A stretch of DNA of 64,000 bases from an uncultured Gammaproteobacteria bacterium (GCA_964650355.1 CAZYTL010000004.1:67912-131911); one strand, 5' to 3'. Positions 7,070-63,969 are shown, numbered from the stretch's first letter. Notes: generated by a model not told the origin, from the letters alone. A program made the numbers and translations.

Positions 7070-7324
7070 CTAACTTTTCCATCCCACCAGCATCTCTTTT
7101 GCTTCCTGATCATTCAATTTTTTCACCACGATTCCCATTTGTACCATCACCCAATCACCCACCTTCACTCCTTCTTCTCCCACCATTGCCCCTCGAGCCT
7201 CAACATTCTCCTTATCTTTCTCATCCGAACTCCTGACTCTTGACTCTTGAATCTTGAATCTATACTCGATCATTGCCTTCCGTCCTTCAATTTTTTTAAT
7301 CTTGCCGGGAATTGCTAAACACAT
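7070..7324 (-). CDS. hypC: [NiFe] hydrogenase assembly chaperone HypC/HybG
   Basis: N-terminal MCLAIPGKI, the HypC hallmark (Cys2). About 84 aa, longer than usual because of an internal low-complexity insertion FKIQESRVRSSDEKDK encoded by heptamer repeats. Confidence 0.85.
   Translation of the reverse strand: MCLAIPGKIKKIEGRKAMIEYRFKIQESRVRSSDEKDKENVEARGAMVGEEGVKVGDWVMVQMGIVVKKLNDQEAKEMLVGWKS
7234..7261. repeat. Heptanucleotide tandem repeat (TGACTCT x2, TGAATCT x2) inside hypC
   Basis: Read directly. Confidence 0.8.
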
Positions 7325-7330
7325 AAAATA

Positions 7331-7384
7331 GTTTCAAGTTTCCCCCCAGGGGGCTTCTTCAGGGTAAATTCCAGTTTCGAGTTT
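7331..7384. promoter_or_regulatory. Two 14-bp direct repeats, AGTTTCAAGTTTCC and AGTTTCGAGTTTCC, in the divergent hypC / hydrogenase-subunit promoter region
   Basis: Read directly; 13 of 14 positions identical, about 40 bp apart. Confidence 0.35.
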
Positions 7385-8014: not shown

Positions 8015-9319
8015 ATGCACCAAGAACCAATCACTCTCGACTCCATCACCAAAATCGAAGGCAACGCCAAACTCGAAGTCCAAATCCAAGACCACCAACT
8101 GGTAGATCTGAAATTCATCATCAACGACTACCGCCGCTTCTATACCCAAGCCATCAAAGGCAAACCCATGCTCACCGCTCCCTCATTTCTTTCCCGCATC
8201 TGCGGCACTTGCTCCGTCGCCCATCTCTTCTGTTCCATAGAAGCCGTGGAAAAATCCCAAAACATTAAAATTACCGACCAAACCAAACTCCTACGCCGCC
8301 TGGCGTATAACTCTCTCATGATCCGCGATCATGCCCTCCACCTTTATTTCTTTGTCCTGCCCGACGTCTTGGGCCTTGACTCCATCCTGGACATTCCCGA
8401 CGATCCTAACGACCTCGGCCACACTTTATTGCATGACTCTTTTGCCATCAAACAACTGGGCACCGATCTGTCTACCGCCATTATTGGCGCTGCCGTCCAT
8501 GCCCCCTTACCCACCGTGGGCGGCTTTTTCAAACTCCCTGACCCTTCCCAATTTCCCGCCTTTATCGATCGTCTACAAGCCATCCGTCCACAGGTTCTCC
8601 GCTGCATCAAACTCTTCTATGACTGGAAAGAAGAATTCAAACGCAACACCGATTACCTTTGCTTAAGAAACTCAGATCATTGGGATTTCCTCGAAGGCCA
8701 GGTCATCAACTCCAATGGCTTAAAAGTCCCCGAGGAACAATTCCACGACTTTCTCACCCAAGTAGTCATCCCCTATTCCCAGGCAGAAGGCTACAAATTC
8801 ACTGACACCCACGAAGACTATTTCGTCGGTGCCCTAGCCAGAATCAACCTCAATCAGGACCTTCTTCACCCCCGGACCCAAAAAGATATCGAACCCTACC
8901 TCAACTTTTTCCCTTCAGACAACATTCATGACAACGATCTCGCTCAGGCTATCGAAATCCTTCACGCTGTCGACGACTCCATTGACATCCTTCAAAACTT
9001 ACACCTCAACTCCGACGAAAAACCCATTCGCCAGCCTCCTCAAGCCGGCACTGGAGTAGGTGTTGTCGAGGCTCCCCGCGGCATTCTCTATCATCTAGCC
9101 CAAGTTAATGACAAAGGCATCATCACCGACTACGACGTCATCGTCCCCACGGCCCAAAACCAAATCAACATCGAAAACGACCTTAAAAAATACTTTTCCG
9201 CACACCACTCAGAAGACAAAAACACCGTCCAACTCCAGGCTGAAAAAATCATTCGTGCTTACGACCCTTGCATGTCCTGCGCCACCAACTTCCTCAAAAT
9301 TGAATGGATCAAAAAATAA
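8015..9319 (+). CDS. [NiFe] hydrogenase large (alpha) subunit, group 3-like
   Basis: N-terminal RICGTCSVAH (L1 Ni-binding motif) and C-terminal DPCMSCATN (L5 motif) followed by a short extension of the kind cleaved by the maturation protease. Confidence 0.9.
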   Translation: MHQEPITLDSITKIEGNAKLEVQIQDHQLVDLKFIINDYRRFYTQAIKGKPMLTAPSFLSRICGTCSVAHLFCSIEAVEKSQNIKITDQTKLLRRLAYNSLMIRDHALHLYFFVLPDVLGLDSILDIPDDPNDLGHTLLHDSFAIKQLGTDLSTAIIGAAVHAPLPTVGGFFKLPDPSQFPAFIDRLQAIRPQVLRCIKLFYDWKEEFKRNTDYLCLRNSDHWDFLEGQVINSNGLKVPEEQFHDFLTQVVIPYSQAEGYKFTDTHEDYFVGALARINLNQDLLHPRTQKDIEPYLNFFPSDNIHDNDLAQAIEILHAVDDSIDILQNLHLNSDEKPIRQPPQAGTGVGVVEAPRGILYHLAQVNDKGIITDYDVIVPTAQNQINIENDLKKYFSAHHSEDKNTVQLQAEKIIRAYDPCMSCATNFLKIEWIKK

Positions 9320-9582: not shown

Positions 9583-9978
9583 TTAATCTCTGTCAAGATT
9601 CTTTCCACTTAATAAGTCAGCAATTCGCTCAGCGAAATTTGTCTCCCACCCCATCGGTATCCCGACAATCTTCACCTTCCCCAACTTGCCCAACTTCCGC
9701 AAATACCGAATCTGAAATCCTAAATCATAATCATGCACCGTACTCCTCTGAGACAAAACCAACTTATCCACATCTCTTTCGCTAAATAAAATCACCTTAT
9801 CAATTCCTTCCACCACATCCATCACCACCACCTCATCCTCCTCAGCAAACGGCAAATCCTCATTGGGATTCACAAACACTAACTCCATATTCTTAACCTT
9901 TCCTTCCAACTCCTTCGCCACTTTTATGGCCGCATTATCCATCTCCACATCCGGATTCCCAAACACATAAACTTTCAT
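9583..9978 (-). CDS. Hydrogenase maturation endopeptidase (HycI/HoxW family)
   Basis: 131 aa; N-terminal MKVYVFGNPDVEMDNAAIKVA resembles the VLGIGNxxxxDDGxG start of hydrogenase maturation proteases. Adjacent to the large subunit. Confidence 0.7.
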   Translation of the reverse strand: MKVYVFGNPDVEMDNAAIKVAKELEGKVKNMELVFVNPNEDLPFAEEDEVVVMDVVEGIDKVILFSERDVDKLVLSQRSTVHDYDLGFQIRYLRKLGKLGKVKIVGIPMGWETNFAERIADLLSGKNLDRD

Positions 9979-9996: not shown

Positions 9997-10038
9997 AATA
10001 CTTGATACTTGATACCCAATGCTTAATCCATGATACTA
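9997..10038. repeat. Heptanucleotide tandem repeat (ATACTTG x2, then degenerate units)
   Basis: Read directly; lies in the divergent region between the protease gene and the next ORF. Confidence 0.8.
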
Positions 10039-10766
10039 GCCCCATGGATATTAAGGCCCTTCAACTCGTTTCCCGCTTCGCTTATTCACCCAACAAATTA
10101 GGTTACTGTGGCTTAAACTCAGCCAACGCCGCCTTTTCCAAATGTCTCGTTAACGGTGACTGTGATCAGGTACCCCAAGAAATAACTCATTTCCAGGGCC
10201 TCCACCCCTATCTCAAAACCATCGCCCAGGTATCAAACAAACATTTTCTTGACTACCAGGTTGTCGAAGCCTATTGGTTGGGTAACGATCAACTAAAAAA
10301 ATTCCAACCCCAACACTACCAAATCCTGATCGACAACCTTCAGGCCCAGGGTTTGCCTGACTTCTTTATTAAAGACGTCAAAAGCCATCCACCCAAAGTC
10401 TTCATTCCTCTCCACATCTTCAACGTCCTCCATATTGGCGTCGGCCGCATTACCGGCTCCGTACCGTTTAACCTCGACTCCATCAATCACTGTATGATCC
10501 GCTGGGGCAAAGTCACCCAAATCAATCCTTCAAAAGCTCAAGCCACCATCAAACTCAAACAATTAAAATACAAGTCAAAAACTAATCATTATCAACTAAT
10601 AACTAATAACGATAGCGAAACCGTCTCCTATGAACCACTCTTCCTTCCCGATTTGAAAATTAACCAGACCGTGGCCGTTCACTGGAAACAAATCACTAAA
10701 ATTCTTACCGCTCGAGAAACCCGTAACCTCTCTCACTGGACCAAAACCATTCTAGATTCTCTCTAA
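10002..10766 (+). CDS. Hypothetical protein, about 240-254 aa
   Basis: Long ORF. The 5' end overlaps the heptamer repeats; the true start may be the internal ATG near 10044 (MDIKALQ). Confidence 0.5.
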   Translation: MILDTQCLIHDTSPMDIKALQLVSRFAYSPNKLGYCGLNSANAAFSKCLVNGDCDQVPQEITHFQGLHPYLKTIAQVSNKHFLDYQVVEAYWLGNDQLKKFQPQHYQILIDNLQAQGLPDFFIKDVKSHPPKVFIPLHIFNVLHIGVGRITGSVPFNLDSINHCMIRWGKVTQINPSKAQATIKLKQLKYKSKTNHYQLITNNDSETVSYEPLFLPDLKINQTVAVHWKQITKILTARETRNLSHWTKTILDSL

Positions 10767-11696
10767 ATTTCGACTCCTTAACCGCAAAGACCTACCTTCT
10801 GCCACAGCCACAAACAATCCCACTCCCGAGATAATCAATCCCGCCTGTAACCCCATCTCCCATGTCCACTGATGGGTCACAAAAATAGCTGATAACACAT
10901 TCGTTACCAAAGTCGCCCCCACCAAAATAGTCGCTACCAATATAACCGGCGCCATCTTTAACGCCCGATACCAAGCCATCAATGTCGATACTAAGGTAAT
11001 CATAGTCACGAGCATCCATAAAAACTGATCCACAGACAAACTCAAAACTTGCCCTATAAACCCAGGATACATCCAAAATGACATGCTTAATAGAATTATC
11101 GATCCTATTCCTAATCTGAAAGCAATAATCAAATCCGGATCCACCTCCTTCACTACTAGTTTAATAATCATCTGTTCCACTGCCCATAAAACAGTTGCCC
11201 CCAGCACCATCAACTCCCCTGTAGAATATTTGAAACCTTCAAATCCTCCCACCACCAAATTACTCCCAAACAAAATTACTATTGCCAGTATCTGCAGCCC
11301 GGACAACCTTTCCTTTAATAAGGGCCATGTTAACAATGCTACCCACAACACCAAACTCTTATGAATCAAAGCCGCATTTATTGCCGGGATCTGCGCCAAT
11401 CCGGTAAAAAACAAATAAAAAGGTACCGCCCCCCCAACTACTCCAATCAGCACCAAACCAATAATATTCTGCTTTGCAGAACCTAATTTCTTTAGATCTC
11501 TCCATTTACCACTCATCACTATCCAGCTAATCACCAATAGCGCCACCCCTGTATTCTTAGTCGCTGTAAACACCAAAGGCGGCTGAATCGCCCCCACCGC
11601 AAACTTATTCACAAAAATCGCCACCCCTGAAATCAGTGCCGCTAACAATGCCCAATAAACACCTTTCTTTAACCTCATACCTTCTTTATATAACAC
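10752..11696 (-). CDS. DMT-superfamily (EamA-like) transporter
   Basis: About ten predicted TM helices with a two-fold repeat typical of EamA domains. Confidence 0.7.
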   Translation of the reverse strand: MLYKEGMRLKKGVYWALLAALISGVAIFVNKFAVGAIQPPLVFTATKNTGVALLVISWIVMSGKWRDLKKLGSAKQNIIGLVLIGVVGGAVPFYLFFTGLAQIPAINAALIHKSLVLWVALLTWPLLKERLSGLQILAIVILFGSNLVVGGFEGFKYSTGELMVLGATVLWAVEQMIIKLVVKEVDPDLIIAFRLGIGSIILLSMSFWMYPGFIGQVLSLSVDQFLWMLVTMITLVSTLMAWYRALKMAPVILVATILVGATLVTNVLSAIFVTHQWTWEMGLQAGLIISGVGLFVAVAEGRSLRLRSRNLERI

Positions 11697-11785
11697 ACGA
11701 CACCAAATTAACCTTCTTCAATTATTCAGTCTTCAATCTATATCCTATCTCTCTAATTTCTACTCTCTACTTCCTAATTCCTAAT

Positions 11786-12082
11786 CTATTCTTCCGGCCA
11801 CACTTGTTTCCCTGTCTCTGTGTCCACAATCACAATCGCCTTTGTTGGGCACGACTGTGCAGCCATCGCAATATTCTCCGGAGTGTCTGTACTTTCTTCC
11901 TTCACCACCGCTTTTTGAAACTCATCCAATTCAAACGTCAACGGAGAAATCGCAATACATGAAGCCGCCGCAATACACTTATCCCGAATCACCTTTACCT
12001 TATATTTTCCCACCTGCACAAATTTATCCCCATTCTCATCCGTCTGCACTTGCGGTTGTTGATTACCTTGATCATCAGCCAT
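11786..12082 (-). CDS. Small ferredoxin-like iron-sulfur protein
   Basis: 98 aa with Cys motifs CIAAASC...SCP, resembling single-cluster ferredoxins. Confidence 0.6.
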   Translation of the reverse strand: MADDQGNQQPQVQTDENGDKFVQVGKYKVKVIRDKCIAAASCIAISPLTFELDEFQKAVVKEESTDTPENIAMAAQSCPTKAIVIVDTETGKQVWPEE

Positions 12083-12863: not shown

Positions 12864-12958
12864 ATAATCCTAGCTTACCGTAAAATTAGCTATTTGCAAC
12901 TACTACCTCCTTCCTCCTCCTATCAATGAGCTAACAGCTATAAGCTAAAAGTTGATTC

Positions 12959-15224: not shown

Positions 15225-16997
15225 TTATAAAACGCTTTTAACTTTTTTCACAATTTCTCCGGGATAAATCGGCCTCCCATCATACTTCAGCAAATCATCC
15301 AAAATATCAACTCCCGTATGTTGCTTGATCCACCCTCCCATCTGTCCACTAAAGTTACACTCCACATCAATTAAATATTTCGCCCTCAACAACTGCTGCA
15401 TTACCTCTTGAACAGGAAACGGATTGATCCAAGTCAAATGCAAGTAGTTCACCACGTCTTCGCTTTCATGATTTAAGACTTTCATCGCCTGTAAAATAGC
15501 TCCTTTATTACTACCCCAAGACACAATCGTCACCCGAGCATCTTTGTGCCCATACAACTTAGGTGCTTCCATGTCCTGCTCCCTGCACGTCTCTAACTTT
15601 CTCATCCGTTTAGTCATCTGCTGCATCCGATTTTCCGCATCTTCATCCGAATATCCGGAAGGACTATGTTCGTCCGAATTAACCGTCACGTGGTTACCCA
15701 CTCCCGGAATACTTCGTTCAGAAATCCCGTCTTCGGCCAAAGCGAATCGCCCATAACCTTCAACCTTTTCCATTACCAGCTTCCCTCGGTCCACCTCGTA
15801 GCCGTCGGAGTTAAACGGTGCAAAACTCTGATGGCTCTCACACATCATCTTGTCAATCAACACCACTACCGGAGTCTGATATTTCTCAGCTAAATTAAAT
15901 GCTTTCATCGTCAAATGAAAAGCCTCTTCCGCATCTCCCGGCGCTAACACAATCCTGGGAAACTCCCCCTGATGAGCATGCAACACAAACCGCAAATCCC
16001 CCTGTTCAGTCCAAGTCGGCAACCCTGTTGCCGGCGCCCCCCTCATTCCCATCACAATCACCACCGGCGTTTCCGTCATCCCTGCCAACCCATAACCTTC
16101 AGTCATCAAGCAGAATCCCCCGCCTGATGTGGCCACCATCGACCTCACTCCGGCATACCCTGCCCCAACCGCCATATTTATTCCCGACAACTCGTCTTCA
16201 GGTTGCTTATACACAAATCCGTACTTCTCCTGCCAAGGTGCCAACGCGTGCAAAATATTCGAAATCGGCGTCATTGGATAAATCGCCGCAAACTGCATTC
16301 CTCCCGCCACCGCCCCCAAAGCCACCGACTCATTCGCCGTCACCACCATTCTTTCTCTTGACTCTTGTTTCTCGCTTCTTGAATCTGGTATCACCACTCT
16401 AATTCCCTCATTAAAATGTTCCAATACATAATCATACCCCGCCTTAGCCACTTTTTGATTCTCATCAATAATCTCCTGCTTCTTATCGCTGAACTCCTCC
16501 GCAATCATCTCATTCAAATGCTGCAAGTTTCCTCCCAATAGCGCCATCGTCGCTCCCAAAGCCACCGTATTCCGCATCACTTCCAACCCGCCTAAATCCT
16601 TGGCAATCTTCACTAATGGCACCGGAAACAAATCCGCCTTATCGCTCAATTTACTCACATCTATATTCTGCTCCGAGTTATACAAAATCCCTGGCTTCAC
16701 CTGCTTACCTCCCGCCTCGTACGAGGCTAGTTCATCTTTATGCAGTTCAATCGTCTCGGCATTCAACGCCACCAAAAAATTAGTGTCTTTTACTGGAGCC
16801 GTCACCGGCTCTTTACCTACCACCACTTGCATCACGTTATGTCCCCCCCGCACAATCGAGGGATACTCAGTATAATCATAAATCTCATATCCCGACCTGG
16901 TGGCAATCTTTGAAAACGTCAACCCTGCAGACATGATCCCGAACCCCGCCGGACCCCCTATCTTAAACGAAAACAAACCCTTCATATCTTTCACCAT
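15225..16997 (-). CDS. 2-oxoacid:ferredoxin oxidoreductase, alpha subunit with fused N-terminal gamma domain
   Basis: 590 aa; N-terminal FKIGGPAGFGIMSAG (gamma domain) followed by the alpha domain. Adjacent to the beta subunit with a 6-nt gap. Confidence 0.9.
   Translation of the reverse strand: MVKDMKGLFSFKIGGPAGFGIMSAGLTFSKIATRSGYEIYDYTEYPSIVRGGHNVMQVVVGKEPVTAPVKDTNFLVALNAETIELHKDELASYEAGGKQVKPGILYNSEQNIDVSKLSDKADLFPVPLVKIAKDLGGLEVMRNTVALGATMALLGGNLQHLNEMIAEEFSDKKQEIIDENQKVAKAGYDYVLEHFNEGIRVVIPDSRSEKQESRERMVVTANESVALGAVAGGMQFAAIYPMTPISNILHALAPWQEKYGFVYKQPEDELSGINMAVGAGYAGVRSMVATSGGGFCLMTEGYGLAGMTETPVVIVMGMRGAPATGLPTWTEQGDLRFVLHAHQGEFPRIVLAPGDAEEAFHLTMKAFNLAEKYQTPVVVLIDKMMCESHQSFAPFNSDGYEVDRGKLVMEKVEGYGRFALAEDGISERSIPGVGNHVTVNSDEHSPSGYSDEDAENRMQQMTKRMRKLETCREQDMEAPKLYGHKDARVTIVSWGSNKGAILQAMKVLNHESEDVVNYLHLTWINPFPVQEVMQQLLRAKYLIDVECNFSGQMGGWIKQHTGVDILDDLLKYDGRPIYPGEIVKKVKSVL
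16354..16388. repeat. Heptanucleotide tandem repeat inside the OFOR-alpha coding sequence (encodes DSRSEKQESRER)
   Basis: Read directly: TCTCTTG ACTCTTG TTTCTCG CTTCTTG AATCTGG. Confidence 0.7.
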
Positions 16998-27875: not shown

Positions 27876-29627
27876 ATGCTCAAAACTTACAAAACCTTTT
27901 ACCACTTCCTGCTCAAGTACCGCTGGCAGTTTGTCCTGTTCAGCCTTGCCCTCGTGGCCTTAAGCATCTCCGTCAGCATTCAACCCTACTTCTACAAGCT
28001 CTTCGTTGACCAATTAACCCAAACCGAAGGCCCTCTCCTTGCCGACAACTATCAATCCCTGCTCAACATCCTTCTCCTCTACATCGGCGTCCGCCTCCTG
28101 CACGTCATCTTTGACCTCCTCACCTATTTCCTGGGCGACACCATTCTCATCGCCGCCTCTCGAGACGCTCGTTTGGCCGTGTTCCGCCAACTCCAGAACC
28201 TGGACTTTGCCTTCCATCTTTCCAAAAGCACCGGATCTTTAATCAGCGCCATCAAACGCGGCGACAATGCCTTCTTTAACCTCTTTCATCGCCTCAACAT
28301 CGAAATTCCCCGCATCATTATCAACTTCTTTGTCATTCTTATCTTCTTTTCTACCATCCGCTGGGAAATCACTGCTCTGATGATCCTTTCTTTCGCCGTC
28401 AACCTTTTCGCCGCCAAGTTCCTCATCACCTACAATATCCGCACCCGGGCCCAATTTAACCAAGCCGAAGACCATATCTCCGACCTCATAGTTGATAACC
28501 TCATCAACTACGAAACCGTCAAACTCTTTGCTAAAGAAAACTGGGAATTCAACCGTCTCAAAAAAGACTTTAAAGATTGGGTAACCAAATTCTGGGCCTT
28601 TGCCAACTCCTTCCGCCTCATCGACATTACCATTGGTACCCTTGGTAACCTGGGTCTTTTTCTCGTCCTTCTTTTCAGCCTCCAACTAACCCATCGCCGC
28701 CAGTTCACTCCCGGGGAATTTATCCTCGTACTGGGATTTGTCAGCTCCTTCTATCCCCGATTCTTCGAATTAATTTTCAAACTTCGGGACCTAGTCAAAA
28801 ACCTCACCGACGTAGAAAAATACTTCGACATCCTCGACCAGAAAACCTTAATCAAGGACCCAGCCCATCCCGTATCCAACACCTCAGTCGCTGGGGAAAT
28901 CGAATTCCGCAACGTCACCTTCACGTATCCTGAAGCGAAAAAACCCGCTCTCCAAAATTTCGACCTCAGAATCCGCCAAGGCCAGTCAATCGCCTTTGTC
29001 GGCTCCTCAGGAGTAGGTAAAACCACCGTGGTCAAACTTCTCATGCGCTTCTTTGACGTTGACCGGGGAGAAATCTTAATCGACGGCATCAATATTAAAC
29101 ATTTCACTAAAAGCCAGCTCCGTTCCTTCATGGGCATCGTGCCCCAGGAACCCATCCTCTTCAACAACACCATCGGCTTCAACATCGCCTATGGAGCCAG
29201 CCGACCATCCCGTAAACAAATCATGGCCGCCATCAAAATGGCCAACCTGGATCAATTCATCTGGTCCCTACCTCAAAAACTCCGCACTCAAGTCGGCGAA
29301 CGCGGCATCAAACTTTCCGGCGGCCAAAAACAGCGTCTGGCCATTGCCCGGATGATCCTGGCCAACCCCGACATCATCATCTTTGACGAGGCCACTTCCC
29401 AGCTCGATTCCCATTCCGAAAAAATTATCCAGGACGCTTTTTGGAAAGCCGCCCAAAACAAAACCACCATCATCATCGCCCACCGTCTGTCTACCATTAC
29501 CCGCGCTGATCAAATCGTGGTCATGAAACACGGACGGGTTGTGGAAAAAGGCTCTCACCAAGACCTCATCCACCGCCAAAAATCCCTCTATAAAAAATTC
29601 TGGCGCCTCCAAACCCAAAAAACTTAA
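27876..29627 (+). CDS. ABC transporter, fused permease/ATP-binding (type I exporter, MsbA-like)
   Basis: Six N-terminal TM helices; Walker A GSSGVGKTT; signature LSGGQKQRLAIAR; Walker B IIIFDEATS. Confidence 0.9.
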   Translation: MLKTYKTFYHFLLKYRWQFVLFSLALVALSISVSIQPYFYKLFVDQLTQTEGPLLADNYQSLLNILLLYIGVRLLHVIFDLLTYFLGDTILIAASRDARLAVFRQLQNLDFAFHLSKSTGSLISAIKRGDNAFFNLFHRLNIEIPRIIINFFVILIFFSTIRWEITALMILSFAVNLFAAKFLITYNIRTRAQFNQAEDHISDLIVDNLINYETVKLFAKENWEFNRLKKDFKDWVTKFWAFANSFRLIDITIGTLGNLGLFLVLLFSLQLTHRRQFTPGEFILVLGFVSSFYPRFFELIFKLRDLVKNLTDVEKYFDILDQKTLIKDPAHPVSNTSVAGEIEFRNVTFTYPEAKKPALQNFDLRIRQGQSIAFVGSSGVGKTTVVKLLMRFFDVDRGEILIDGINIKHFTKSQLRSFMGIVPQEPILFNNTIGFNIAYGASRPSRKQIMAAIKMANLDQFIWSLPQKLRTQVGERGIKLSGGQKQRLAIARMILANPDIIIFDEATSQLDSHSEKIIQDAFWKAAQNKTTIIIAHRLSTITRADQIVVMKHGRVVEKGSHQDLIHRQKSLYKKFWRLQTQKT

Positions 29628-35308: not shown

Positions 35309-35370
35309 TATCTCATTTTACCCCAACGCTACCGGATCCGTCATCATCTCTAATCCTCCACCTCTTCATC

Positions 35371-44197: not shown

Positions 44198-45637
44198 TCA
44201 CCTGACATTCCTCTTCACTTTCGCCCCCTCTTCCGTATCCTCCACCGTATACCCCAGATCCTCAATCTGCTTCCTCAATTCATCCGCTTCCTCCCACTTC
44301 TTCTCCCTTCGTAAAGTCTCTCTCTTATCAACCAAATCTAATACCTCTTTCGATACTTGATACTTAATACTTGATACCTGATACAAATTTAGTCCCAGCA
44401 CCTGGTCCCAATCCAGCAGCAAATCCACCTTGTCATAACCAGGAATATTATCTTTCAGCATCTCCCACACAATGGCCAAAGCCCCTGGCATATCCAAATC
44501 ATCTTCAATCCGTTCTCTAAACCTCGCCTGCCACATCTGCACCTTCTGCAACTTCTCTTCCGACAACTTAGTTCGTGACTCTTCCTTTCCTTCAACCCTA
44601 GATCTCATCTCCGCCAACCGATCTCTTAACTTATTCAAAGCAATTTGCGCCCCCTTCAGCGCCTCCCATGTAAAATTCAATTCCGTACTATGATGGGCTG
44701 TTAAAAACAAATATCTCAAGGCTATCACATCGAATCCCTTCTCTTCCACATCTTCGACTTTGACCAAGTTTCCTAAACTCTTACTCATCTTCTGTCCTTC
44801 GACCTTTAAAAAATTATGGTGTATCCAGTACTTTACCCAGGGAGACTTTCCGGTAGCTGCTTCCGACTGGGCAATCTCATTGGGATGGTGCACAGAGAGA
44901 TGGTCTTTTCCGCCGGTATGAATATCAAACTGCTCTCCCAAATATTTCATACTCATCGCCGAACACTCTACATGCCACCCTGGGAATCCCTCTCCCCAAG
45001 GGCTGTCCCAATGCATCACATGGTCGGCAAACCGGCCAACCCGCTTAAACCACAAAGAAAAATCGGCCGGGTGTTTTTTATGTTCACCAGTCTTAACTTC
45101 TTCGCGAACAGCAACCTTTTTATCTTCGAGCTTTTGTCCAAACATCTTCCCATAATCTTTAAATTTAGTTACATCAAAATACACCGCTTCTTCAGTCTCA
45201 TACCCATATCCTTTCTCAACTAATTTCCTTACCAATTCGATCTGCTCCGGAATATGTTCAGTAGCTTTGCATATGACATTAGGTCTCAATATATTTAATT
45301 TATCCATCGTCTGATAAAAATAATCCGTAAAATACTCTGCCACCTCCCACACAGTCTTCCCGAACTTCTTCGCACCTTTTTCCAGCTTGTCTTCACCTTC
45401 GTCAGCATCTGAAACCAAGTGACCTACGTCAGTCACATTTTGTACATGTTTTACCTCATATCCCAAATATTCCAAAGTTCTCCGCAGCACATCATCATGA
45501 ACATATTTAAATCCGTGCCCGATATGCGCATAGTCATATACTGTCATTCCACACGTATACATTCCCACTTTTTTCCCTGCAGGATCAATTGGTACAAACT
45601 CCTCTTTCTGGCGAGATAAAGAATTATACAATCTCAT
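44198..45637 (-). CDS. cysS: Cysteine--tRNA ligase
   Basis: CGMTVYDYAHIGHG (the HIGH motif) and KMSKSLGN (the KMSKS motif). The C-terminal region carries a YQVSSIKYQVS insertion encoded by heptamer repeats. Confidence 0.95.
   Translation of the reverse strand: MRLYNSLSRQKEEFVPIDPAGKKVGMYTCGMTVYDYAHIGHGFKYVHDDVLRRTLEYLGYEVKHVQNVTDVGHLVSDADEGEDKLEKGAKKFGKTVWEVAEYFTDYFYQTMDKLNILRPNVICKATEHIPEQIELVRKLVEKGYGYETEEAVYFDVTKFKDYGKMFGQKLEDKKVAVREEVKTGEHKKHPADFSLWFKRVGRFADHVMHWDSPWGEGFPGWHVECSAMSMKYLGEQFDIHTGGKDHLSVHHPNEIAQSEAATGKSPWVKYWIHHNFLKVEGQKMSKSLGNLVKVEDVEEKGFDVIALRYLFLTAHHSTELNFTWEALKGAQIALNKLRDRLAEMRSRVEGKEESRTKLSEEKLQKVQMWQARFRERIEDDLDMPGALAIVWEMLKDNIPGYDKVDLLLDWDQVLGLNLYQVSSIKYQVSKEVLDLVDKRETLRREKKWEEADELRKQIEDLGYTVEDTEEGAKVKRNVR
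44342..44376. repeat. Heptanucleotide tandem repeat (GATACTT x2, AATACTT, GATACCT, GATACAA) inside the cysS 3' coding region
   Basis: Read directly. Confidence 0.8.
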
Positions 45638-45722: not shown

Positions 45723-46562
45723 TTAACTATCCTTATCCCATTCTCCGTCATACTCTAAAATTCTAAATCCTTCCGCATACTTCAAACCAACCATTTCTCC
45801 TACTCTTTCTGCGGTTCTGGTTAGCATCCTTTCCACCTTTTTCCATTGTACTTCCCGATCAAACTGAGACACAAACCCCTCCACCGTTTGCAATCTCTCC
45901 TGCCATACAGATTCCACATCCACCACCACATTGGCTTCCGCCGGAGCAAACAACCACACCTGTGACTTGGGAGACAAAAACCGATCACCCAAACCGTTTT
46001 TTTTCACCCACTTCGGCAGAGTAGCCATCATCACTCCCACATTCACCGCCCATGCCAAAGCCCGATGGTCCGGATGCACATACGCATCATACCTACCCCA
46101 CGGATCAAATGAAAACACCAAGTCGGGTTGCTCATTAAAAAGAACCTTAACTACTCTTTTGAGTAACTGTTTTTTCCTATTCTGCAAATCCAGGTCAGCA
46201 TAACCCCAAAACTTAATCTCTTTAGCCTCAAACTTCTTAGCGGCTATCTTCGCCTCTGTCATCCGCATACTCACTAACTCTGACCTGTCCTGATCATGAT
46301 CATGAGTGCCCATGTTTCCGTCAGTGGCTACCACCACCTTCAAACTATTATTCTGCTTTGCAGAACCTAACTGTATCAGAGTCCCCGCCGCCAAAAACTC
46401 CGCGTCATCACTGTGCGCCCCAAACACCAAAATGCGCTTTTTCTTAATCTTGCTAATATCTATTAAATCTGGTTTCAAAATCTTATAACCACCCATAATA
46501 AAAGTGTTTAGTATTTGGTATTTTGTATAACGTATTAAGCATTGTGGTACAAAAATCACCAC
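45723..46562 (-). CDS. PIG-L/LmbE-family N-acetylglucosaminyl deacetylase
   Basis: ILVFGAHSDDAEFLAAGT matches the PIG-L motif (H-x-DD). Confidence 0.75.
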   Translation of the reverse strand: MVIFVPQCLIRYTKYQILNTFIMGGYKILKPDLIDISKIKKKRILVFGAHSDDAEFLAAGTLIQLGSAKQNNSLKVVVATDGNMGTHDHDQDRSELVSMRMTEAKIAAKKFEAKEIKFWGYADLDLQNRKKQLLKRVVKVLFNEQPDLVFSFDPWGRYDAYVHPDHRALAWAVNVGVMMATLPKWVKKNGLGDRFLSPKSQVWLFAPAEANVVVDVESVWQERLQTVEGFVSQFDREVQWKKVERMLTRTAERVGEMVGLKYAEGFRILEYDGEWDKDS

Positions 46563-46583
46563 TGCTAAAATCCGACCTTTGCT

Positions 46584-46618
46584 ATACCTAATACCTGATA
46601 CCTCATACCAAATACCAA
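46584..46618. repeat. Heptanucleotide tandem repeat (ATACCTN x3, ATACCAA x2), intergenic
   Basis: Read directly. Confidence 0.8.
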
Positions 46619-46643
46619 TAAAAAACCTCCCTGGTCAGGAGGC
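46615..46643 (-). terminator. Rho-independent terminator-like hairpin (CCTCC-N7-GGAGG followed by a T-run on the minus strand)
   Basis: Read directly; lies downstream of the minus-strand NUDIX gene. Confidence 0.5.
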
Positions 46644-46678
46644 TAACATAAATCTTAAAAACTGTTTGTGATCTAAAC

Positions 46679-46710
46679 CACAAAACCGCCTCCCAACCTA
46701 AGAGGAGGCG
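46679..46710 (-). terminator. Second terminator-like hairpin (CGCCTCC-N10-GGAGGCG, then TTTTG on the minus strand)
   Basis: Read directly. Confidence 0.4.
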
Positions 46711-47276: not shown

Positions 47277-47397
47277 CCAACATCTACTACGCGGGCTCCG
47301 ATATCCCTCGGGACCCGCCCACTATTCGCTCCAAATTCTGAGTGAATCCAAAGTCGAATCAACAATCTTCTATTTATCAGTAAATGATCTTTACTGT

Positions 47398-47432
47398 TTA
47401 CTGATTACTGATAACCGATTACCGACGGCCTA
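47398..47432. repeat. Heptanucleotide tandem repeat (TTTACTG x2, ATTACTG, ATAACCG, ATTACCG), intergenic
   Basis: Read directly. Confidence 0.75.
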
Positions 47433-53007: not shown

Positions 53008-55200
53008 CTAAGAGCTTTGAGTTAACATCTCTGGACCTTCCACCGTCATTGGTGTCCAGTCGCCTACTATTAACTTTTGATGTTTGATCTTAGATATTAG
53101 ATCTCTGTACCACTCATCCATCCTTCCCGCCACTTCCCTCCAGGAATTCTGTAGCCCTTCCTCCCGATTCCTCTCTTCGATTTGCTTTACCTTCCTGCTC
53201 TGCTTATTTGCCAACACATAATTGATCTTCTCGGCCAAGGTTTTATCATCTCGGGTTTGAACACAAAACCCATTTACTTCGTGTTTGATTAACAACGGCA
53301 GGGCCGTATTATTGGCTACAATGCACACCAGCCCCTGACTCATCCCCTCATGCACCACATTACAAAAACTCTCCCACAACGCCATATGCACCATCATCTG
53401 ACTGTGTTTAAGAGCGTAATATTTATCAATCCCTCGGATCACTCCCGGAAATACCACCCGATTTTCTACCCCCAATTCCTTAGCCAGTTTCTTTAAATAA
53501 TCAAAGTATCCGGCGTGCTGGTTCTTTTCCACCGGACCGATCGCCACATACTTAACCTCTTTTGGCACATCAACTAAGGCCTTAATCACCGTCTCCAAGT
53601 TCTTAATCGGATAAATCCTTCCTATCTGAATCAGATACTTTCCCCAATCTTTAACCTGACTTTTAATCTCCTTGCTGGCCAGTTTATCAGCCTCCATGTA
53701 AGCTTCGTCATCCAAACCATTGGCAATCACCTCAATCAAATCCTCTCTGACCCCGTGCTTCAACATCTCCTGCTTTTCCCATTCCGATACTGCTCGTACT
53801 CCGTCAACTACTGCATTTATCATCCAGGTGCCCAAGGAATAATGATAAACCTGTTTTCCCCATCTCTGCCACCAGGGAAATACCGCCCATTCAGGATTAA
53901 ATCCTCCATGCGGAGTCAATATTACCGCATACCCCTTCCTTCCTAATAACTTATCCACCCCTGCCTTTAACAAGATATGCAAATGTGGGAATACATTAAA
54001 ATTATGCAACGCCACCACCGCAGTCCTCTGCCAATCAATTTGAGGGAAAAACCCATATCCGGGATGATATCCGTACCGTTTTACATTCATCCCCGAAATC
54101 GTCTCCTCATCCCCTAACGCCTGCTTTTCAGTCAACGTATCTTTTGATGTATGTATCTGAACATCCCACCCCTTCTCAGCCTGCCTCGCCTGACGGCTGT
54201 CAAAGCGGGCTAACACTTTATAAGTCTGCAAAATGTTTACCTCAATCCCAGCCGTCACCGGATAAAAGTACTTGGTGACGAGGTCGACGCGCATACCAGA
54301 ATGTTCATCGCTCACATCTTTCACAGGTTTTCGCAAACTAGACCAAACAGGCAGAACTAACAAAGAGATGCGTTTCCAAATCTTCTTAAATGACCTTAAT
54401 AACTTCTTAATTAATCCTCTTACTTGCACCACCGACGGACTCACCATTGCCCTTACTTCAGCCAAACTATGCGTTCCGTTAACCCCGATTCTGGATACCC
54501 GTAACCTGTCTGTCAGCGGTTTAATCAACTCATCATCCATACTCAACCCCAGATCAAAACCGGCGTTCTTCACCATCTCCCAAACTTTTCCATCGTACGC
54601 CCCCTTGGGATAAGCAAAATACCTAATCTTTATACCTAAATCCTGCTCTAACTTCTTTTTCGCTTCGACTATTTCTTTCTCTATCTGGGTTGCATCCAGC
54701 TTCTCAAAATCCGCATGCGTCATACTGTGGCACCCCACTTCCCAACCCACCTTTACCAACTGCTTAATTTCCCGTTTGCTCAGTAGTTGATTATTATTGG
54801 CTAATTCTTCCCGGTTAGCTTTTGAAGGATCAGCCAACAAGTTAATACAAGGTTTGATCCCTTTCTTCTTCAACCAGTCCTTCACCTCTAACACACTGGC
54901 ATAGCCGTCATCAAAAGTGACCGCGGCCACCGGCTTGTTAAATGTCCTCTTCCCTTTAATAAACTCCTCAATCTCCTTCAACCTCACAAATTCACAATCT
55001 CGGCTTAACAGTTTCATTTGCTGCTTAAAAGCCTTCTCGTTCACATTCAGCCACCAGTCATTCCCGATCCCGTGATAGACCAACACCACCACCTGATTCT
55101 TCCTTCCCAGCATTTGATCCGCTGACCACAGGATCACATAAACCAGCCTCCTCAACCAGGAAAATAATTTGAATGGTAATCGTGAAATAAAATTCTTCAT
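53008..55200 (-). CDS. Fusion protein: polysaccharide deacetylase (NodB homology) domain plus GT4 (group 1) glycosyltransferase domain
   Basis: N-terminal VVLVYHGIG...FDDGY...HSMTHADF (NodB motifs); C-terminal GT-B region with EGMSQGLVCIVANN (an E-x7-E-like motif). Confidence 0.7.
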   Translation of the reverse strand: MKNFISRLPFKLFSWLRRLVYVILWSADQMLGRKNQVVVLVYHGIGNDWWLNVNEKAFKQQMKLLSRDCEFVRLKEIEEFIKGKRTFNKPVAAVTFDDGYASVLEVKDWLKKKGIKPCINLLADPSKANREELANNNQLLSKREIKQLVKVGWEVGCHSMTHADFEKLDATQIEKEIVEAKKKLEQDLGIKIRYFAYPKGAYDGKVWEMVKNAGFDLGLSMDDELIKPLTDRLRVSRIGVNGTHSLAEVRAMVSPSVVQVRGLIKKLLRSFKKIWKRISLLVLPVWSSLRKPVKDVSDEHSGMRVDLVTKYFYPVTAGIEVNILQTYKVLARFDSRQARQAEKGWDVQIHTSKDTLTEKQALGDEETISGMNVKRYGYHPGYGFFPQIDWQRTAVVALHNFNVFPHLHILLKAGVDKLLGRKGYAVILTPHGGFNPEWAVFPWWQRWGKQVYHYSLGTWMINAVVDGVRAVSEWEKQEMLKHGVREDLIEVIANGLDDEAYMEADKLASKEIKSQVKDWGKYLIQIGRIYPIKNLETVIKALVDVPKEVKYVAIGPVEKNQHAGYFDYLKKLAKELGVENRVVFPGVIRGIDKYYALKHSQMMVHMALWESFCNVVHEGMSQGLVCIVANNTALPLLIKHEVNGFCVQTRDDKTLAEKINYVLANKQSRKVKQIEERNREEGLQNSWREVAGRMDEWYRDLISKIKHQKLIVGDWTPMTVEGPEMLTQSS
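53076..53103. repeat. Heptanucleotide tandem repeat (TTTGATG, TTTGATC, TTAGATA, TTAGATC) in the 3' coding region of the deacetylase-GT4 fusion
   Basis: Read directly; encodes DLISKIKHQK. Confidence 0.7.
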
Positions 55201-61900: not shown

Positions 61901-63969
61901 GCACATCCCACCATGTAAGCGTACAAATAACAAAAATTACCAAATACCATTGAAAACACCCCCAAATATAAAATCGGAGTCAAATATAAAGATTCGATCA
62001 CTTCCCCTACTATTGGCCTGAAAGCAAAATAACTTGCCGTCAACAACCATAAAAACGGATTCACCATCATCGACAACACCTTTCCTCCCACCGTCAACTG
62101 AAAGTACAAATTCTTCACCCACGTCCAACCATCATCATCTGATTTGACAACATCTGAATTCTGAATTCTAACTCCTAACTCCTGTATTCCTGATCCCTGA
62201 TTACTGCTTACTGATTGCTTGTTTCTTCTCATATGAACAAGGTACGTCTGTACATACCCCTTCACCCATCTGGTTCTTTGCCTATACCAGTTAAATATCC
62301 TGCTATTAGCTTCTTCCCAGGTCGTGGAATCCACAATCGCCGTCTGATAACCATGCTTCACCAGCCGCATTCCCAAATCGCAATCCTCTGTCACATTAAA
62401 CGCATCCCATTTATGCAATCTCAGCAAATCCTCAGTCCTAAAATGATTCGAAGTCCCGCCCAAAGGAATCGGCGCCTGAATCGACTGTAAACCTGGCAGG
62501 ATCAAATCAAACCACAGCGAATATTCAGCCGTAAACAACCTAGTGAGTAAATTTTGTTCCTGATTATAATAATTTAACTTAGCTTGAATACAAATCGTCT
62601 GCGGCCCTGCTTTTCTAAAAGCTAATACGGCTTTTTTCAACTGTAACGCATCTGGCCAGTCTTCCGCATCATAAACCACTACATACTCACCCTTGGCCAT
62701 CGATAAACCATAATTACACGCCTTTGGCTTCGTCTTAGGCAATCCGTGCGGCACCACCACCACCTGAAAATAATCAGGCAAATCAAACTCTCCCACCTTA
62801 TTAATTGTCTGTCTGTCATCCTCTTCCAATAACAGCAACACTTGCAACCTATCTTTGGGATAATCCAACTGCTGAATTCCCTGCACGAACTGGGGCACCA
62901 CCTGCCACTCCTTATATAACGGACACAAAATCGTATAACTCGGCCACTTATCCCCAAAGTCATTCATCTCCTCCTCTGTTACCTTAAACTCCACATCTTT
63001 CGCCAGACTCCTGTACACCAGCCATAAACTGAACACCAAATCAGCCAAATAATATAAAGTCAACCCGCTAATCACCCCAATCAGCGTCCCCCTCCAGTTC
63101 ACTGCCAAACCCAAGACCAGCAGCGCTGTTAACAATCCGATCACCAACTTTTGCCGACCGGTCGCCTGTTCGAACGCGCTTTCCGTCTTAGGTAAATCAG
63201 TTCGCGGCTCATACCTTTGCCCCTTATGCACCCACTTTTCTTCCTCTTCTGATTTTTGCTCTGTCATCGTCCCTTTCCTCCTTCTCATTTTTAACTTCAG
63301 AGCCGACCACCCAATCTCCAGACTCGTTTTCAAGATATTTACTTTTGCTTGACCTACAGTTCTCTCTGCAAAATCAATCTCCACTCCTCCAATTCTATAA
63401 CCCGCCTCCCTGGCATTCAGTAAAAATTCCAAATCAAACGTCCATCCTGTGGGATCCAATTCCATCCCCTCCAGCACCTGTTTGCGCCATACCTTCAATC
63501 CGGACTGCACGTCACAGTTCAAACCATGTAATCCCTTACCAAACACCCATCTAAACGCCTTACTTACCACCCTCCGTTTCCACCCGGTCCCCTGATAATT
63601 CCGATTCGCCACCACCACATCCGCCTCACCACTGGCAATTCTTTCCACCATTTCTGCGAGCGCTTCCGGCGGATACTGCAAATCCGCATCCATCATCCCC
63701 ACCACATCATACTTAGCCTGGGCAAATCCCTCTAACAACGAAAAAGCCTTACCTTGCGGACCTTGTTTTTCTACTAATCTGACCGGATAATCCTTACTCA
63801 GCGTCAAAGTCTCCTCTCGTGTTCCGTCAGTTGATCGGTCATTCACCACCAATACCTCATAGCCAATCCCAGCTGACCGCAAATTCGCGTCAATTCTTTT
63901 CACCAACGGGGTTAGATTTCCTTCCTCGTTAAACGCTGGAACAACAATTGAGATATATACCTGGGACAT
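58933..63969 (-). CDS. 1678-aa multidomain glycan-assembly fusion: GT2 (DPM/GtrB-like), then a processive GT2 synthase (cellulose/chitin/PNAG-synthase-like, with TM), then a Wzx/MOP-family flippase-like polytopic domain, then a C-terminal GT4 glycosyltransferase
   Basis: Approximate residue ranges follow. Residues 1-230: VVPAFNEEGNL, VVNDRSTDGT, MDADLQ (GT2). Residues 330-600: DAEDWPD (DxD), TEDCDLG (the TED motif), QRTRW (QxxRW of processive GT2), followed by TM helices. Residues 790-1290: 12-14 TM helices resembling polysaccharide biosynthesis/Wzx proteins. Residues 1300-1678: GT-B with EGWSLVVLEANACGTPTIA...VVDGKTGWLV, the GT4 E-x7-E region. Confidence 0.8.
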   Translation of the reverse strand: MSQVYISIVVPAFNEEGNLTPLVKRIDANLRSAGIGYEVLVVNDRSTDGTREETLTLSKDYPVRLVEKQGPQGKAFSLLEGFAQAKYDVVGMMDADLQYPPEALAEMVERIASGEADVVVANRNYQGTGWKRRVVSKAFRWVFGKGLHGLNCDVQSGLKVWRKQVLEGMELDPTGWTFDLEFLLNAREAGYRIGGVEIDFAERTVGQAKVNILKTSLEIGWSALKLKMRRRKGTMTEQKSEEEEKWVHKGQRYEPRTDLPKTESAFEQATGRQKLVIGLLTALLVLGLAVNWRGTLIGVISGLTLYYLADLVFSLWLVYRSLAKDVEFKVTEEEMNDFGDKWPSYTILCPLYKEWQVVPQFVQGIQQLDYPKDRLQVLLLLEEDDRQTINKVGEFDLPDYFQVVVVPHGLPKTKPKACNYGLSMAKGEYVVVYDAEDWPDALQLKKAVLAFRKAGPQTICIQAKLNYYNQEQNLLTRLFTAEYSLWFDLILPGLQSIQAPIPLGGTSNHFRTEDLLRLHKWDAFNVTEDCDLGMRLVKHGYQTAIVDSTTWEEANSRIFNWYRQRTRWVKGYVQTYLVHMRRNKQSVSSNQGSGIQELGVRIQNSDVVKSDDDGWTWVKNLYFQLTVGGKVLSMMVNPFLWLLTASYFAFRPIVGEVIESLYLTPILYLGVFSMVFGNFCYLYAYMVGCAKRGQWELIKYVFLVPFYWLGMSVAAWRAGYEVIVNPYYWAKTKHGFHLEQAEEEVVEEPAWGPEVLPQPAPVYATASAVRGGRMEVPINAEMGSLPGLANGKRRGLISLGDFWPLSWLNGKTDQAESQSGQTDGKAGARKTRRVDKEQTGWLIDQLKSATSMGGVLVGASVASNFLNFLYNAYLGRAVSVEQFGLVSLMGSLVYLAQIPLQAVSRTVMYKSGYWLGEHGEVAKRFWRYTRWQAMKVAIAITGMWLMTVPIWARVFQSSDMLPFYLFTPVWIIGTLYAIDSGFLRGSMKFAAMGVVILTEALAKLVISVVLVKLGLNAWVYAAIPVSMGMGLFIGWSVAIRLPVDMVEASKKQIRQLSYKFVGTSLMTKLATLGFMNLDVVAAKYFLSPVEAGEYALLSLVGKMVFFGGSLFAQFIPPLVSREEGAGRDSKSVFYKLLGLATVVNLAGFVAVGWLGRLTVPLLLGEKSRVILGLLPIYAGASVLFAIANNFMSYYQLKKKNVFPVVGLGLSIMQVAGLAVWHQSVEMMAMMMLLSGVVFMEGMLVMHVFAKQIEKVMEKVFGRVRIVWGNGSGNGHKELEEEEGKGLRILIYNWRDIKHVWAGGAEVYAHEMAKRWVKEGHEVTLFCGNDKKNKEEEVIDGVRIVRKGGFYTVYFWAFWCYVTRFRGKFDVVVDCENGIPFFTPLYVRKPKFLVVYHVHQGVYLKHLQLRWYLKSFAVIAKLMEGVVMPWLYRNEQVVTISESSKKDIVSLGRFKPEQIEFAYCGVNLKDYYRGAKTKYPSFVYVGRHQAYKNVDVGIKAFSQVVKKFPDARLEIAGEGEKTRDLMKLVKNLRVEKSVKFWGKVSEKVKVKLLSSSWVLLQPSSIEGWSLVVLEANACGTPTIAAKVHGLCDSVVDGKTGWLVALKDVDAWAKTMEVAITHESLRSRMGSNAYVFVQQFTWDKAAEKFLQLIEDAAEVRAVPEEIKRPRLVPNVIYQRE
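62153..62222. repeat. Heptanucleotide tandem repeat array (about 10 units: CTGAATT x2, CTAACTC x2, CTGTATT, CCTGATC, CCTGATT, ACTGCTT, ACTGATT...) inside the fusion glycosyltransferase
   Basis: Read directly; encodes the low-complexity linker KQSVSSNQGSGIQELGVRIQNSD. Confidence 0.8.

Follow-up and report, generated by a model that had tools for sequence, protein, structure and literature searches.

The window analysed here, a 64-kb stretch of DNA (GCA_964650355.1, CAZYTL010000004.1:67912-131911), belongs to a genome of the Microgenomates (Patescibacteria, candidate phyla radiation, CPR), that is, to a small uncultivated bacterium, and carries among others the genes for HypC, the alpha subunit of OFOR (OFOR-alpha), CysRS, a NiFe hydrogenase and two glycosyltransferases. 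Both in these genes and between genes it contains short arrays made of head-to-tail copies of a unit of seven nucleotides (nt), 12 loci in total as judged from tandem-repeat rows and lag-7 scans, which we interpret as heptanucleotide simple-sequence repeats (SSRs). The CysRS of the window (44198-45637, minus strand) has its best matches, with 55-68% identity, in Patescibacteria/Microgenomates including Gottesmanbacteria, Chisholmbacteria and Collierbacteria, and no relative closer than 68% was present among 5.8 billion proteins.

Enrichment of period-7 arrays in the window

The window was scanned with Tandem Repeats Finder (TRF; score ≥30, 42 rows in all), using 40 dinucleotide-preserving shuffles of the window as control. 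Rows of period 7 numbered 13, compared to a shuffle mean of 2.25 and a maximum of 6, and no enrichment over the shuffles was seen in the window for periods 8, 10 and 11. Period-9 rows were also enriched (13 vs 1.9), presumably due to codon periodicity, which does not explain period 7. A stricter scan of the window (at least 3 units, at least 85% lag identity, periods 5-12) returned eight arrays of period 7, two of period 6 and none of period 5 or of periods 8-12. In addition, lag 7 was compared with every other lag from 4 to 12 and with dinucleotide shuffles: at the eight thresholds of lag-7 identity (63-95%) given by the eight arrays of an initial annotation of this DNA, lag 7 yielded 1-12 loci, any other lag 0-4 and the shuffles at most 0.4. 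The dinucleotide shuffles and the comparison of lags 4-12 exclude chance or composition as the source of the arrays.

The initial annotation, which had been made from the sequence alone, placed period-7 arrays at eight loci, and all of them indeed have period-7 structure, with coordinates that are right within about 10 nt. The lag-7 identity is 0.95 for 7234-7261, 0.63 for 9997-10038, 0.68 for 16354-16388, 0.68 for 44342-44376 (0.86 for 44350-44384), 0.86 for 46584-46618, 0.75 for 47398-47432, 0.81 for 53076-53103 and 0.71 over the 70 nt of 62153-62222. The arrays at 16354 and 53076 are too degenerate for detection by TRF, and four arrays beyond the eight (10590-10610, 11752-11795, 12929-12951 and 46503-46528) complete the set of 12. 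The size of 4-10 units per array had been overestimated, as TRF gives 2.3-5.4 copies and about ten units occur solely in the array at 62153-62222, which is a composite of three sub-families; perfect runs comprise only 2-3 units and are interrupted. The wider assertion of a genome-wide period-7 signature unaccounted for by gene content was borne out, and the signature is not due to chance, as the tandem-repeat scan of the window gave enrichment over shuffles as well as over other periods. Using curated start codons, six arrays are coding and six are intergenic, with intergenic DNA accounting for about 11% of the window (P = 0.001).

Arrays inside genes

Every one of the six coding arrays is located in a weakly constrained linker, loop or tail. 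The array of hypC (gene 7070-7324, minus strand, identified by a Pfam HupF_HypC match on the Logan gene call) extends over 7222-7270 on the minus strand, with the plus-strand unit ACTCTTG/AATCTTG (sense TCAAGAG/TCAAGAT; TRF 7229-7261: 4.7 copies, 92% match), and encodes RFKIQESRVRS in a loop that is 11-17 amino acids (aa) longer than in three solved HypC structures according to PDB alignments. The degenerate array of the OFOR-alpha gene (15225-16997), located at 16354-16388 (minus strand) and reading CTCTTGA CTCTTGT TTCTCGC TTCTTGA on the plus strand, shares its unit with the hypC array and encodes DSRSEKQESRER. PDB alignments place it in the linker between the gamma-like and alpha domains, a segment of 50 residues here, 46 residues in most of 22 orthologues and 54-77 residues in the nearest relatives. 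In cysS (44198-45637), TRF, translation and alignment identify 4.7 copies of GATACTT (sense CAAGTAT) at 44348-44387 on the minus strand. The resulting YQVSSIKYQVS sits in the variable linker before the C-terminal domain, and since this linker has the same length as in 10 aligned orthologues, the array replaces linker sequence rather than being inserted into it.

Four degenerate units (TTTTGAT GTTTGAT CTTAGAT ATTAGAT; 53073-53105, minus strand) encode DLISKIKHQKLIV in the C-terminal tail of a 730-aa polysaccharide-deacetylase/GT4 protein. The composite array at 62150-62219 (minus strand, about ten units, three TRF rows) consists of TCTGAAT and YCTAACT (two units each), three units of CCTGAT type and two of TACTGMT; it encodes NKQSVSSNQGSGIQELGVRIQNSD inside a long GT2-domain stretch of a 1678-aa multi-domain glycosyltransferase, a protein for which no database record was found. 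The weakest array, three units of AACTAAT at 10590-10610 (plus strand; TRF 10594-10610, 2.4 perfect copies; lag-7 identity 0.86), lies in the DUF6390 gene, and 0.3 loci of this kind are expected in shuffles.

The in-frame translation within conserved genes described in the initial annotation could thus be validated for hypC, OFOR-alpha, cysS and the two glycosyltransferase genes, and the peptides YQVSSIKYQVS (CysRS) and SEKQESRER (OFOR-alpha) had been read correctly. Their description as insertions absent from canonical versions of the proteins needs to be narrowed: the proposed orthologue alignment confirms that the array peptides are absent from orthologues, but a net insertion is not present at every locus, as CysRS has no added length, OFOR-alpha has just 4 aa more than most orthologues, and a clear excess is found in HypC alone. 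In the CysRS and OFOR-alpha alignments the open reading frames (ORFs) are open and homologous on both flanks of the arrays.

Intergenic arrays

Two of the six intergenic arrays lie in sense orientation 5-7 nt before an ATG that lacks a Shine-Dalgarno (SD) sequence. The array at 9997-10038 (plus strand), 2.6 copies of ATACTTG followed by three degenerate units, separates a divergent 131-aa ORF (9583-9978, minus strand) from the DUF6390 gene (plus strand) and ends 5 nt before the SD-less ATG at 10044, a start that agrees with the 239-aa DUF6390 orthologue in the relative L180. A promoter scan finds in this array a 9/12 sigma-70-like match (TTGATA, 17-nt spacer, GATACT; a consensus match only) 6 nt before the ATG, the spacing of which follows from the repeat register, the unit being GATACTT and the offset 4 × 7 − 5 = 23 nt. 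The second case, an inverted-orientation array at 46501-46535 (minus strand ATACAAA ATACCAA ATACTAA), ends about 7 nt before the SD-less ATG of the PIG-L gene at 46496, a start that is uncertain, as the gene caller chose GTG 46562. Together with the array of 5.4 ATACCTN units at 46581-46621 (plus strand) it is predicted to form a hairpin of −39.7 kcal/mol (z = −5.5), with 46581-46621 as the 5' arm in the minus-strand transcript and 46501-46535 as the 3' arm. The 5' arm is located just downstream of two tandem hairpins resembling intrinsic terminators (46624-46644 and 46687-46710, minus strand), which stand right after the stop codon of the NUDIX gene and directly before the heptamer hairpin.

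The degenerate array at 11752-11795 (minus strand; TCTAATT/TCTACTN/CCTAATT on the plus strand; TRF rows of period 7 and period 21) begins where a 98-aa ferredoxin-like gene (11786-12082) ends in its stop codon, upstream of an EamA transporter gene. A short array of 3.3 AGCTAAN units at 12929-12951 (no strand assigned), between NTP-transferase and FNR-like genes, is weak, with 0.4 such loci expected in shuffles. Finally, 4.6 copies of TTTACTG/ATTACTG/ATTACCG at 47384-47427 (no strand assigned) directly follow the HSP20 stop codon (47430) and are preceded by one inverted unit, CAGTAAA, at 47375-47381; a role of this array as terminator was rejected on account of its weak hairpin (z = −1.9) and the lack of a T-run. 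In the same region, a G+C-rich hairpin, GCGGGCTCCGATATCCCTCGGGACCCGC, occupies 47281-47330 within the leader that precedes the NUDIX gene. The 64-kb window has no match to any Rfam family.

A metagenome scan for (ATACYTN)x3.5 matched at least 120 contigs; we examined 80 among the matches listed, with GC contents of 25% to 68%. Of the ATACYTN arrays in these 80 contigs, 29 of 94 in forward and 14 of 93 in reverse orientation have the start of a long ORF within 60 nt downstream (P = 0.014). Inverted array pairs recur in L053, L038 and about ten metagenome contigs among the matches listed. Pairs of (AAGTATT)n and (AATACTT)n spaced 50-500 nt apart are present in L084 (122-626), L136 (323-564), L075, L080, L081, L087, L109, L120, L130 and L131; the pairs of L084 and L136 enclose an entire small gene (a response-regulator receiver in L084), so that the mRNA would have complementary 5' and 3' arrays.

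Arrays in relatives and other genomes

Our comparison set comprises 56 loci (858 kb) that were picked solely for encoding CysRS. It contains 45 period-7 arrays, compared to 0-10 for each other period, and 38 of the 56 loci have no period-7 array. The arrays are concentrated in L002 (11-14 in 14 kb) and L028 (8-10) and are also found in L007, L053, L055 and the L035/L038 pair, two Zixibacteria genomes with a DNA identity of about 90-94% that do not belong to the lineage of the window. The CysRS of L002 carries a different heptamer array (CAATGAG) in the linker equivalent to that of the window cysS array, and arrays in the CysRS variable region occur in L028, L046, L021 and L185 as well. In addition, the S-adenosylhomocysteine (SAH) hydrolase gene of L002, a Patescibacteria metagenome-assembled genome, has four heptamer arrays (gene 2408-3811), two of which encode FEIQNSKLQTNSKFQILNSK; between the DDGxD and SEETTTGV motifs we take this region to be about 17 aa longer than in the human enzyme.

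The syntenic relative L180/L181 (OFOR identity 66%) has 7 arrays in 12 kb, L182 and L185 have two each, and L183 and L184 have none, as do the relatives L001, L003-L005 and L016; the trait is patchy even within Microgenomates. In L180, the large subunit of the NiFe hydrogenase contains a clean insertion of 17 aa, LDEFRSQESEFRRTDQL, which is array-encoded and absent from the 75%-identical orthologue in the window. Positions of arrays are not conserved between the window and L180/L182, save for the OFOR linker, where the unit differs. Whole-unit length differences between close relatives were seen in L035 and L038, in which two orthologous arrays differ by exactly 28 nt (4 units) and by 7 nt, which supports change in whole 7-nt units; the duplicates available for 10 of the 12 window arrays are identical.

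The Zixibacteria pair also harbors a dispersed repeat of about 90-100 nt at no fewer than five intergenic sites, with 83-97% identity (L035 4287-4386; L038 12-48, 1086-1174, 4167-4266, 6927-7015 and 11393-11482), which resembles a miniature inverted-repeat transposable element (MITE) and is separate from the heptamer arrays. Free-standing 23S_rRNA_IVP genes (PF05635) are located beside the hydrogenase genes in L180 (11053-11421) and beside cysS in L184 (12073-12432).

Base composition and unit families

The plus strand of the window is poor in G (14.3%, compared to 31.1% C), with a GC skew of about −0.37 throughout. At four-fold degenerate sites, plus-strand genes have a skew of −0.76 and minus-strand genes the equivalent of −0.64, and this similarity indicates that the disparity between G and C is independent of gene orientation. 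A matching composition has been published for the Microgenomates order UBA1400 (Ch65: C 29.8%, G 15.0%; PMC7143001), so that the strand disparity is known and separate from the heptamer finding; that paper makes no mention of tandem repeats, the word "repeat" appearing just in the full name of CRISPR. A tie between heptamers and extreme GC skew was rejected, since L054 is equally skewed yet has no arrays.

Genes on the G-poor strand are real and supported by Pfam, namely those for DUF6390 (10044-10766, plus strand), the NiFe hydrogenase, an ABC transporter and a sugar transferase (also 8015-9319, 27876-29627 and 41234-41938). Shine-Dalgarno sequences are nearly absent from them (1/12), and the DUF6390 gene was wholly missed by the gene calls attached to the Logan contig L059. 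A TATAAT-like box stands 6-12 nt ahead of the ATG in many minus-strand genes, suggestive of mRNAs with a short leader or none. A direct repeat of 150 nt with 79% identity (35357-35506 and 36128-36277, 771 nt apart) lies in a low-GC stretch (35-39% GC over 36-38 kb).

Most array units have the form N4-TGA on the G-poor strand, so that the sense strand of most genes reads TCA-N4. On the G-poor strand, a stop trinucleotide is present in each of the 12 distinct units (composition-matched probability 1e-5), an excess that is small or marginal in other genomes; the idea of a three-frame stop, significant in the window and just marginal elsewhere, was therefore not adopted. The unit heptamers are not over-represented as singletons, and seeding by frequent words was rejected accordingly. 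Within window arrays, the mismatches per 7 nt rise from 1.95 at a separation of one unit to 3.6-4.7 at a separation of 4-5 units, with a like trend in 210 other arrays, although detection favours similarity of adjacent units, and unit variants tend to come as adjacent identical pairs.

Unrelated to the heptamer arrays, a patch of 24/25 identical nt, TA(A/T)TATTCTGCTTTGCAGAACCTAA, with the hairpin TTCTGC-TTT-GCAGAA, is present at 11462-11486 and 46346-46370, in the same frame of the EamA transporter and PIG-L deacetylase genes. It encodes LGSAKQN in both, the flanks are unrelated, and it looks like the outcome of short-patch copying between unlinked loci of this genome.

Discussion

We interpret the arrays as heptanucleotide SSRs of the class termed "long SSRs", which probably arose by local 7-nt slippage and survive under weak constraint, and assign this reading a probability of roughly 0.6. 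The period-7 enrichment, the placement of the arrays, their non-random units and the indels of 7n nt between related genomes are observations, while slippage as the generator in this genome, the reason for the period of 7 and any function are our inference. Local slipped-strand mispairing or unequal duplication would add or remove whole 7-nt units, and point mutations would later diversify adjacent units. Arrays would persist solely where constraint is weak, that is, in intergenic spacers, inter-domain linkers, surface loops and C-terminal tails, and coding arrays would be translated as hydrophilic peptides with a period of 7 aa (21 nt). Coding DNA would tolerate net changes divisible by 3 alone, so that coding arrays would replace linker sequence at constant length or add few residues. 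The process would favour a small lineage-specific set of units, mostly N4-TGA on the G-poor strand, and a minority of arrays may have been co-opted as SD-less 5' leaders or promoters, or as inverted arrays forming an intergenic hairpin. The decay of unit similarity with separation lends some support, no more, to local duplication. The turnover of array positions between the window and L180/L182, the array-encoded insertion in the L180 hydrogenase and the period-specific excess in the CysRS loci likewise agree with local duplication in 7-nt steps under selection. For the slippage or mini-element signature suggested in the initial annotation, the whole-unit slippage part is backed by the 28-nt and 7-nt indels between L035 and L038, while for the mini-element part the shared unit families and a shared 26-nt module described below are suggestive.

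Several observations weigh against slippage, in particular against slippage from random seeds. Three times, two unlinked arrays are built from identical units in the same strand (7229/16354, 9998/44352 and 47391/62186), where 0.075 such pairs are expected for 14 arrays, and TGA occurs on the G-poor strand in 9 of 15 units compared to a background of 7.4% (P = 2e-7, chosen post hoc). L180 shares unit families with the window (ATCTTGA, TTCTGA/CTCCTGA, TATTTGA, AACTTGA) at different loci. A composite module of 26 nt, CAGGAGTYAGGAGTYAGAATTCAGAA, in the glycosyltransferase gene of the window (62159-62184) recurs with 24/26 identities in the non-homologous hydrogenase gene of L180, and a 34-nt block is common to the intergenic arrays 10003-10036 and 46525-46558 (74% identity), with the same order of variant units and the exact 11-mer CAATGCTTAAT. 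Slippage alone accounts neither for the period of 7 nor for the CysRS array and the N-terminal FKIQ segment of the L180 hydrogenase, which are periodic without a change in length. Furthermore, no copy-number variation of the window arrays was found in the Logan contigs L057-L059, which stem from the same run, cover all 12 arrays but 16354-16388 and 62150-62219, match the window at 100% identity across these ten and thus constitute weak evidence against population variation. L180 and L181, from two samples, are likewise identical, and with the nearest CysRS relative at just 68% identity there is no close relative for a comparison of the window arrays.

That the arrays arose by chance from skewed composition or codon periodicity, or are an artefact of assembly, could be suspected from the extreme G/C strand bias, the low-complexity pyrimidine-rich stretches and the likewise enriched period-9 rows; yet the 8-12 loci observed compare with at most 0.4 in shuffles, there is no excess for periods 8 and 10, which are no multiples of 3 either, coding arrays are flanked by open and homologous reading frame on both sides, independently assembled Logan contigs are identical, and the same phenomenon appears in many unrelated assemblies. 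The shuffle and cross-period controls refute this origin. Hardly more plausible are phase-variable contingency loci, in which the gain or loss of one unit would switch genes by frameshift or tune promoters. The frameshift argument of the initial annotation is correct in that 7 is not a multiple of 3, and heptanucleotide SSRs that tune expression are known from the promoters of H. influenzae hmw1A (PMC8262952) and V. cholerae ctxAB (bioRxiv 10.1101/2021.05.14.444153); but the perfect tracts of the window comprise 2-3 units and are interrupted, the arrays affect housekeeping genes present in single copy (cysS, OFOR-alpha, hypC) in which a frameshift would be deleterious, they lie in internal linkers or near 3' ends instead of 5' coding regions, and independent contigs contain no length variants of the 10 arrays that they span. 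The arrays also differ from contingency tracts, which are long, free of interruptions and located in promoters or 5' coding regions of genes that are dispensable or variable. We regard it as unlikely, if far less so, that the arrays are mainly functional cis-elements kept by selection, be it as single-stranded landing pads, protein-binding sites in SD-less leaders, promoters for short-leader mRNAs or regulatory or stabilising hairpins, a kind of role that has been proposed for the TAACTGA repeats of Beggiatoaceae. The two sense-orientation arrays before ATG 10044 and ATG 46496, the sigma-70-like match, the forward bias of the metagenome arrays before ORF starts, the recurring inverted pairs with the strong predicted hairpin of the window and the conservation of unit families between the window and L180 would all suit such a role. 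However, a leader or promoter function makes no sense for the half of the arrays that lie inside coding linkers, the intergenic arrays 11752, 12929 and 47384 are situated right after stop codons or far from starts, the units decay with distance instead of holding a consensus, and positions are not conserved between relatives. In addition, the orientation bias is just about 2-3 fold in one unit family of organisms without assigned taxonomy, and a match to a promoter consensus is no evidence of function.

About equally doubtful is a spread by copy and paste, in which a mobile mini-element, ectopic gene conversion or templated repair or synthesis would place ready-made heptamer blocks at new sites, by insertion or patching, and slippage would only modify them. 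This would accommodate the identical units at unlinked loci in the same orientation, the variant order common to 9997-10038 and 46525-46558, the 26-nt module and the lack of over-represented singletons, and the EamA/PIG-L patch points to short-patch copying in this genome. On the other hand, terminal inverted repeats (TIRs), target-site duplications and conserved flanks are absent from the window arrays, the flanks of which are unrelated, and the inverted arrays at 46503/46583 are the repeats themselves and not TIRs. Moreover, the surroundings of the arrays showed no gene for a transposase or reverse transcriptase, the sample is small, two families in the same order could result from convergence, and the CysRS array, with its unaltered protein length, differs from a simple insertion. 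Slightly more doubtful still, in our view, is a specific activity, such as templated synthesis, conversion of patches or a very small mobile module, that would write or spread the arrays by depositing a small N4-TGA repertoire, akin to the TAACTGA of giant sulfur bacteria and cyanobacteria, in weakly constrained DNA and overwriting loops of essential proteins at constant length; if true, it would explain the patchy phylogenetic distribution, the conserved unit families with turnover of positions and the 26-nt module in unrelated genes of two genomes.

The slippage-derived SSRs that we favour have published counterparts. According to the accounts cited in PMC4679880 and PMC4692102, SSRs with units of 5-11 nt are in many bacteria most often heptanucleotide ones, for which polymerase slippage has been proposed as the origin; Cyanothece strains differ by indels in 7-nt increments (PMC4679880). 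The arrays described here share with the prokaryotic long SSRs (Mrazek, Guo and Shah 2007, as cited in PMC4679880 and PMC4692102) an over-representation of tandem 7-nt units compared to other lengths, a patchy distribution over genomes, proposed slippage and, in the L035/L038 pair, indels in 7-nt steps, and those of the window display defining features of that class, namely tandem short units and an excess over composition that is specific to one length. According to the same accounts, long SSRs are known from Burkholderia, Xanthomonas, cyanobacteria and actinobacteria, and coding SSRs are mostly multiples of three, whereas the window belongs to Patescibacteria/CPR and half of its arrays are translated in conserved housekeeping genes. 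Heptanucleotide SSRs in bacteria are thus known, and what is added here is a new lineage (Microgenomates), not a new kind of repeat.

The TAACTGA repeats of marine Beggiatoaceae, some cyanobacteria and Bacteroidetes (MacGregor 2015, PMC4679880) resemble the window arrays in that sets are short, with 2-6 heptamers that related 7-mers often "split", in the N4-TGA form, with TTACTGA (47391, 62186) one base from TAACTGA, in the forward position of some arrays few nt upstream of SD-less starts, and in occasional inverted pairs. In contrast, the TAACTGA unit itself is absent from the window arrays, in which several families (ATACYTN, CTCTTGA, TCTGAAT) coexist; TAACTGA repeats mostly lie few nt upstream of starts without ribosome-binding site, compared to 2 of the 6 intergenic arrays here, and 145 of 170 TAACTGA sets of BOGUAY are fully intergenic (PMC4679880), whereas 6 of 12 window arrays are coding and many lie in ORFs in sense orientation. 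The cyanobacterial STRR and the GGGNATC repeats of Xanthomonas and Nostoc (Rehm et al. 2015, PMC4692102) likewise form genome-specific heptamer families at many, mostly intergenic loci, with some inverted stem-loop pairs and variation of length and sequence between close relatives, but their units are G-rich and G-quadruplex-capable (PMC4692102), while those of the window are A/T-rich with a single G and form shorter arrays (3-5 units), half of them coding. The STRR units CCCCAGT, TTGGTCA and CAACAGT of heterocystous cyanobacteria are not units of the window, whose host is Microgenomates-like.

Promoter heptads (V. cholerae ctxAB TTTTGAT; H. influenzae hmw1A, PMC8262952), which tune expression, are also tandem 7-nt units upstream of genes, and the array at 53076 contains TTTTGAT; they are single defined loci of regulation or contingency with copy-number variation in the population, in contrast to the dispersed set of the window with its many coding arrays and no observed variation. 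Borg tandem repeats (PMC9879509) evolve fast, arise independently in genes and add hydrophilic low-complexity segments, which in Borgs create intrinsically disordered regions; their coding units are divisible by 3, perfect and recent (PMC9879509), whereas the window has a 7-nt unit with a peptide period of 7 aa (21 nt) in short, decayed arrays. Unlike MITEs, the window arrays have no defined ends, TIRs or target-site duplications. In the searchable literature, we found no paper linking heptamer repeats to Patescibacteria.

To our knowledge, the over-representation of 7-nt repeats in some bacteria has been known since 1990-2007, with mechanism and function never established. The window extends this unexplained phenomenon to minimal genomes, although the arrays alone do not reveal the mechanism. 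What we consider noteworthy is the frequent in-frame occupation of loops of essential proteins and the lineage-conserved N4-TGA families with turnover of positions. In practice, heptamer arrays are a potential source of error for gene callers and for alignment-based annotation of CPR genomes. The arrays also show how hydrophilic low-complexity segments are gained or renewed in the loops of essential enzymes, among them CysRS, OFOR, HypC, NiFe hydrogenase and SAH hydrolase. With tiny CPR genomes, the range of the signature now includes minimal sets of replication and repair genes, and the signature is patchy also in Zixibacteria and many metagenome contigs; its presence in minimal CPR genomes together with this patchiness leaves fewer candidate causes and offers a route to the determinant by phyletic profiling.

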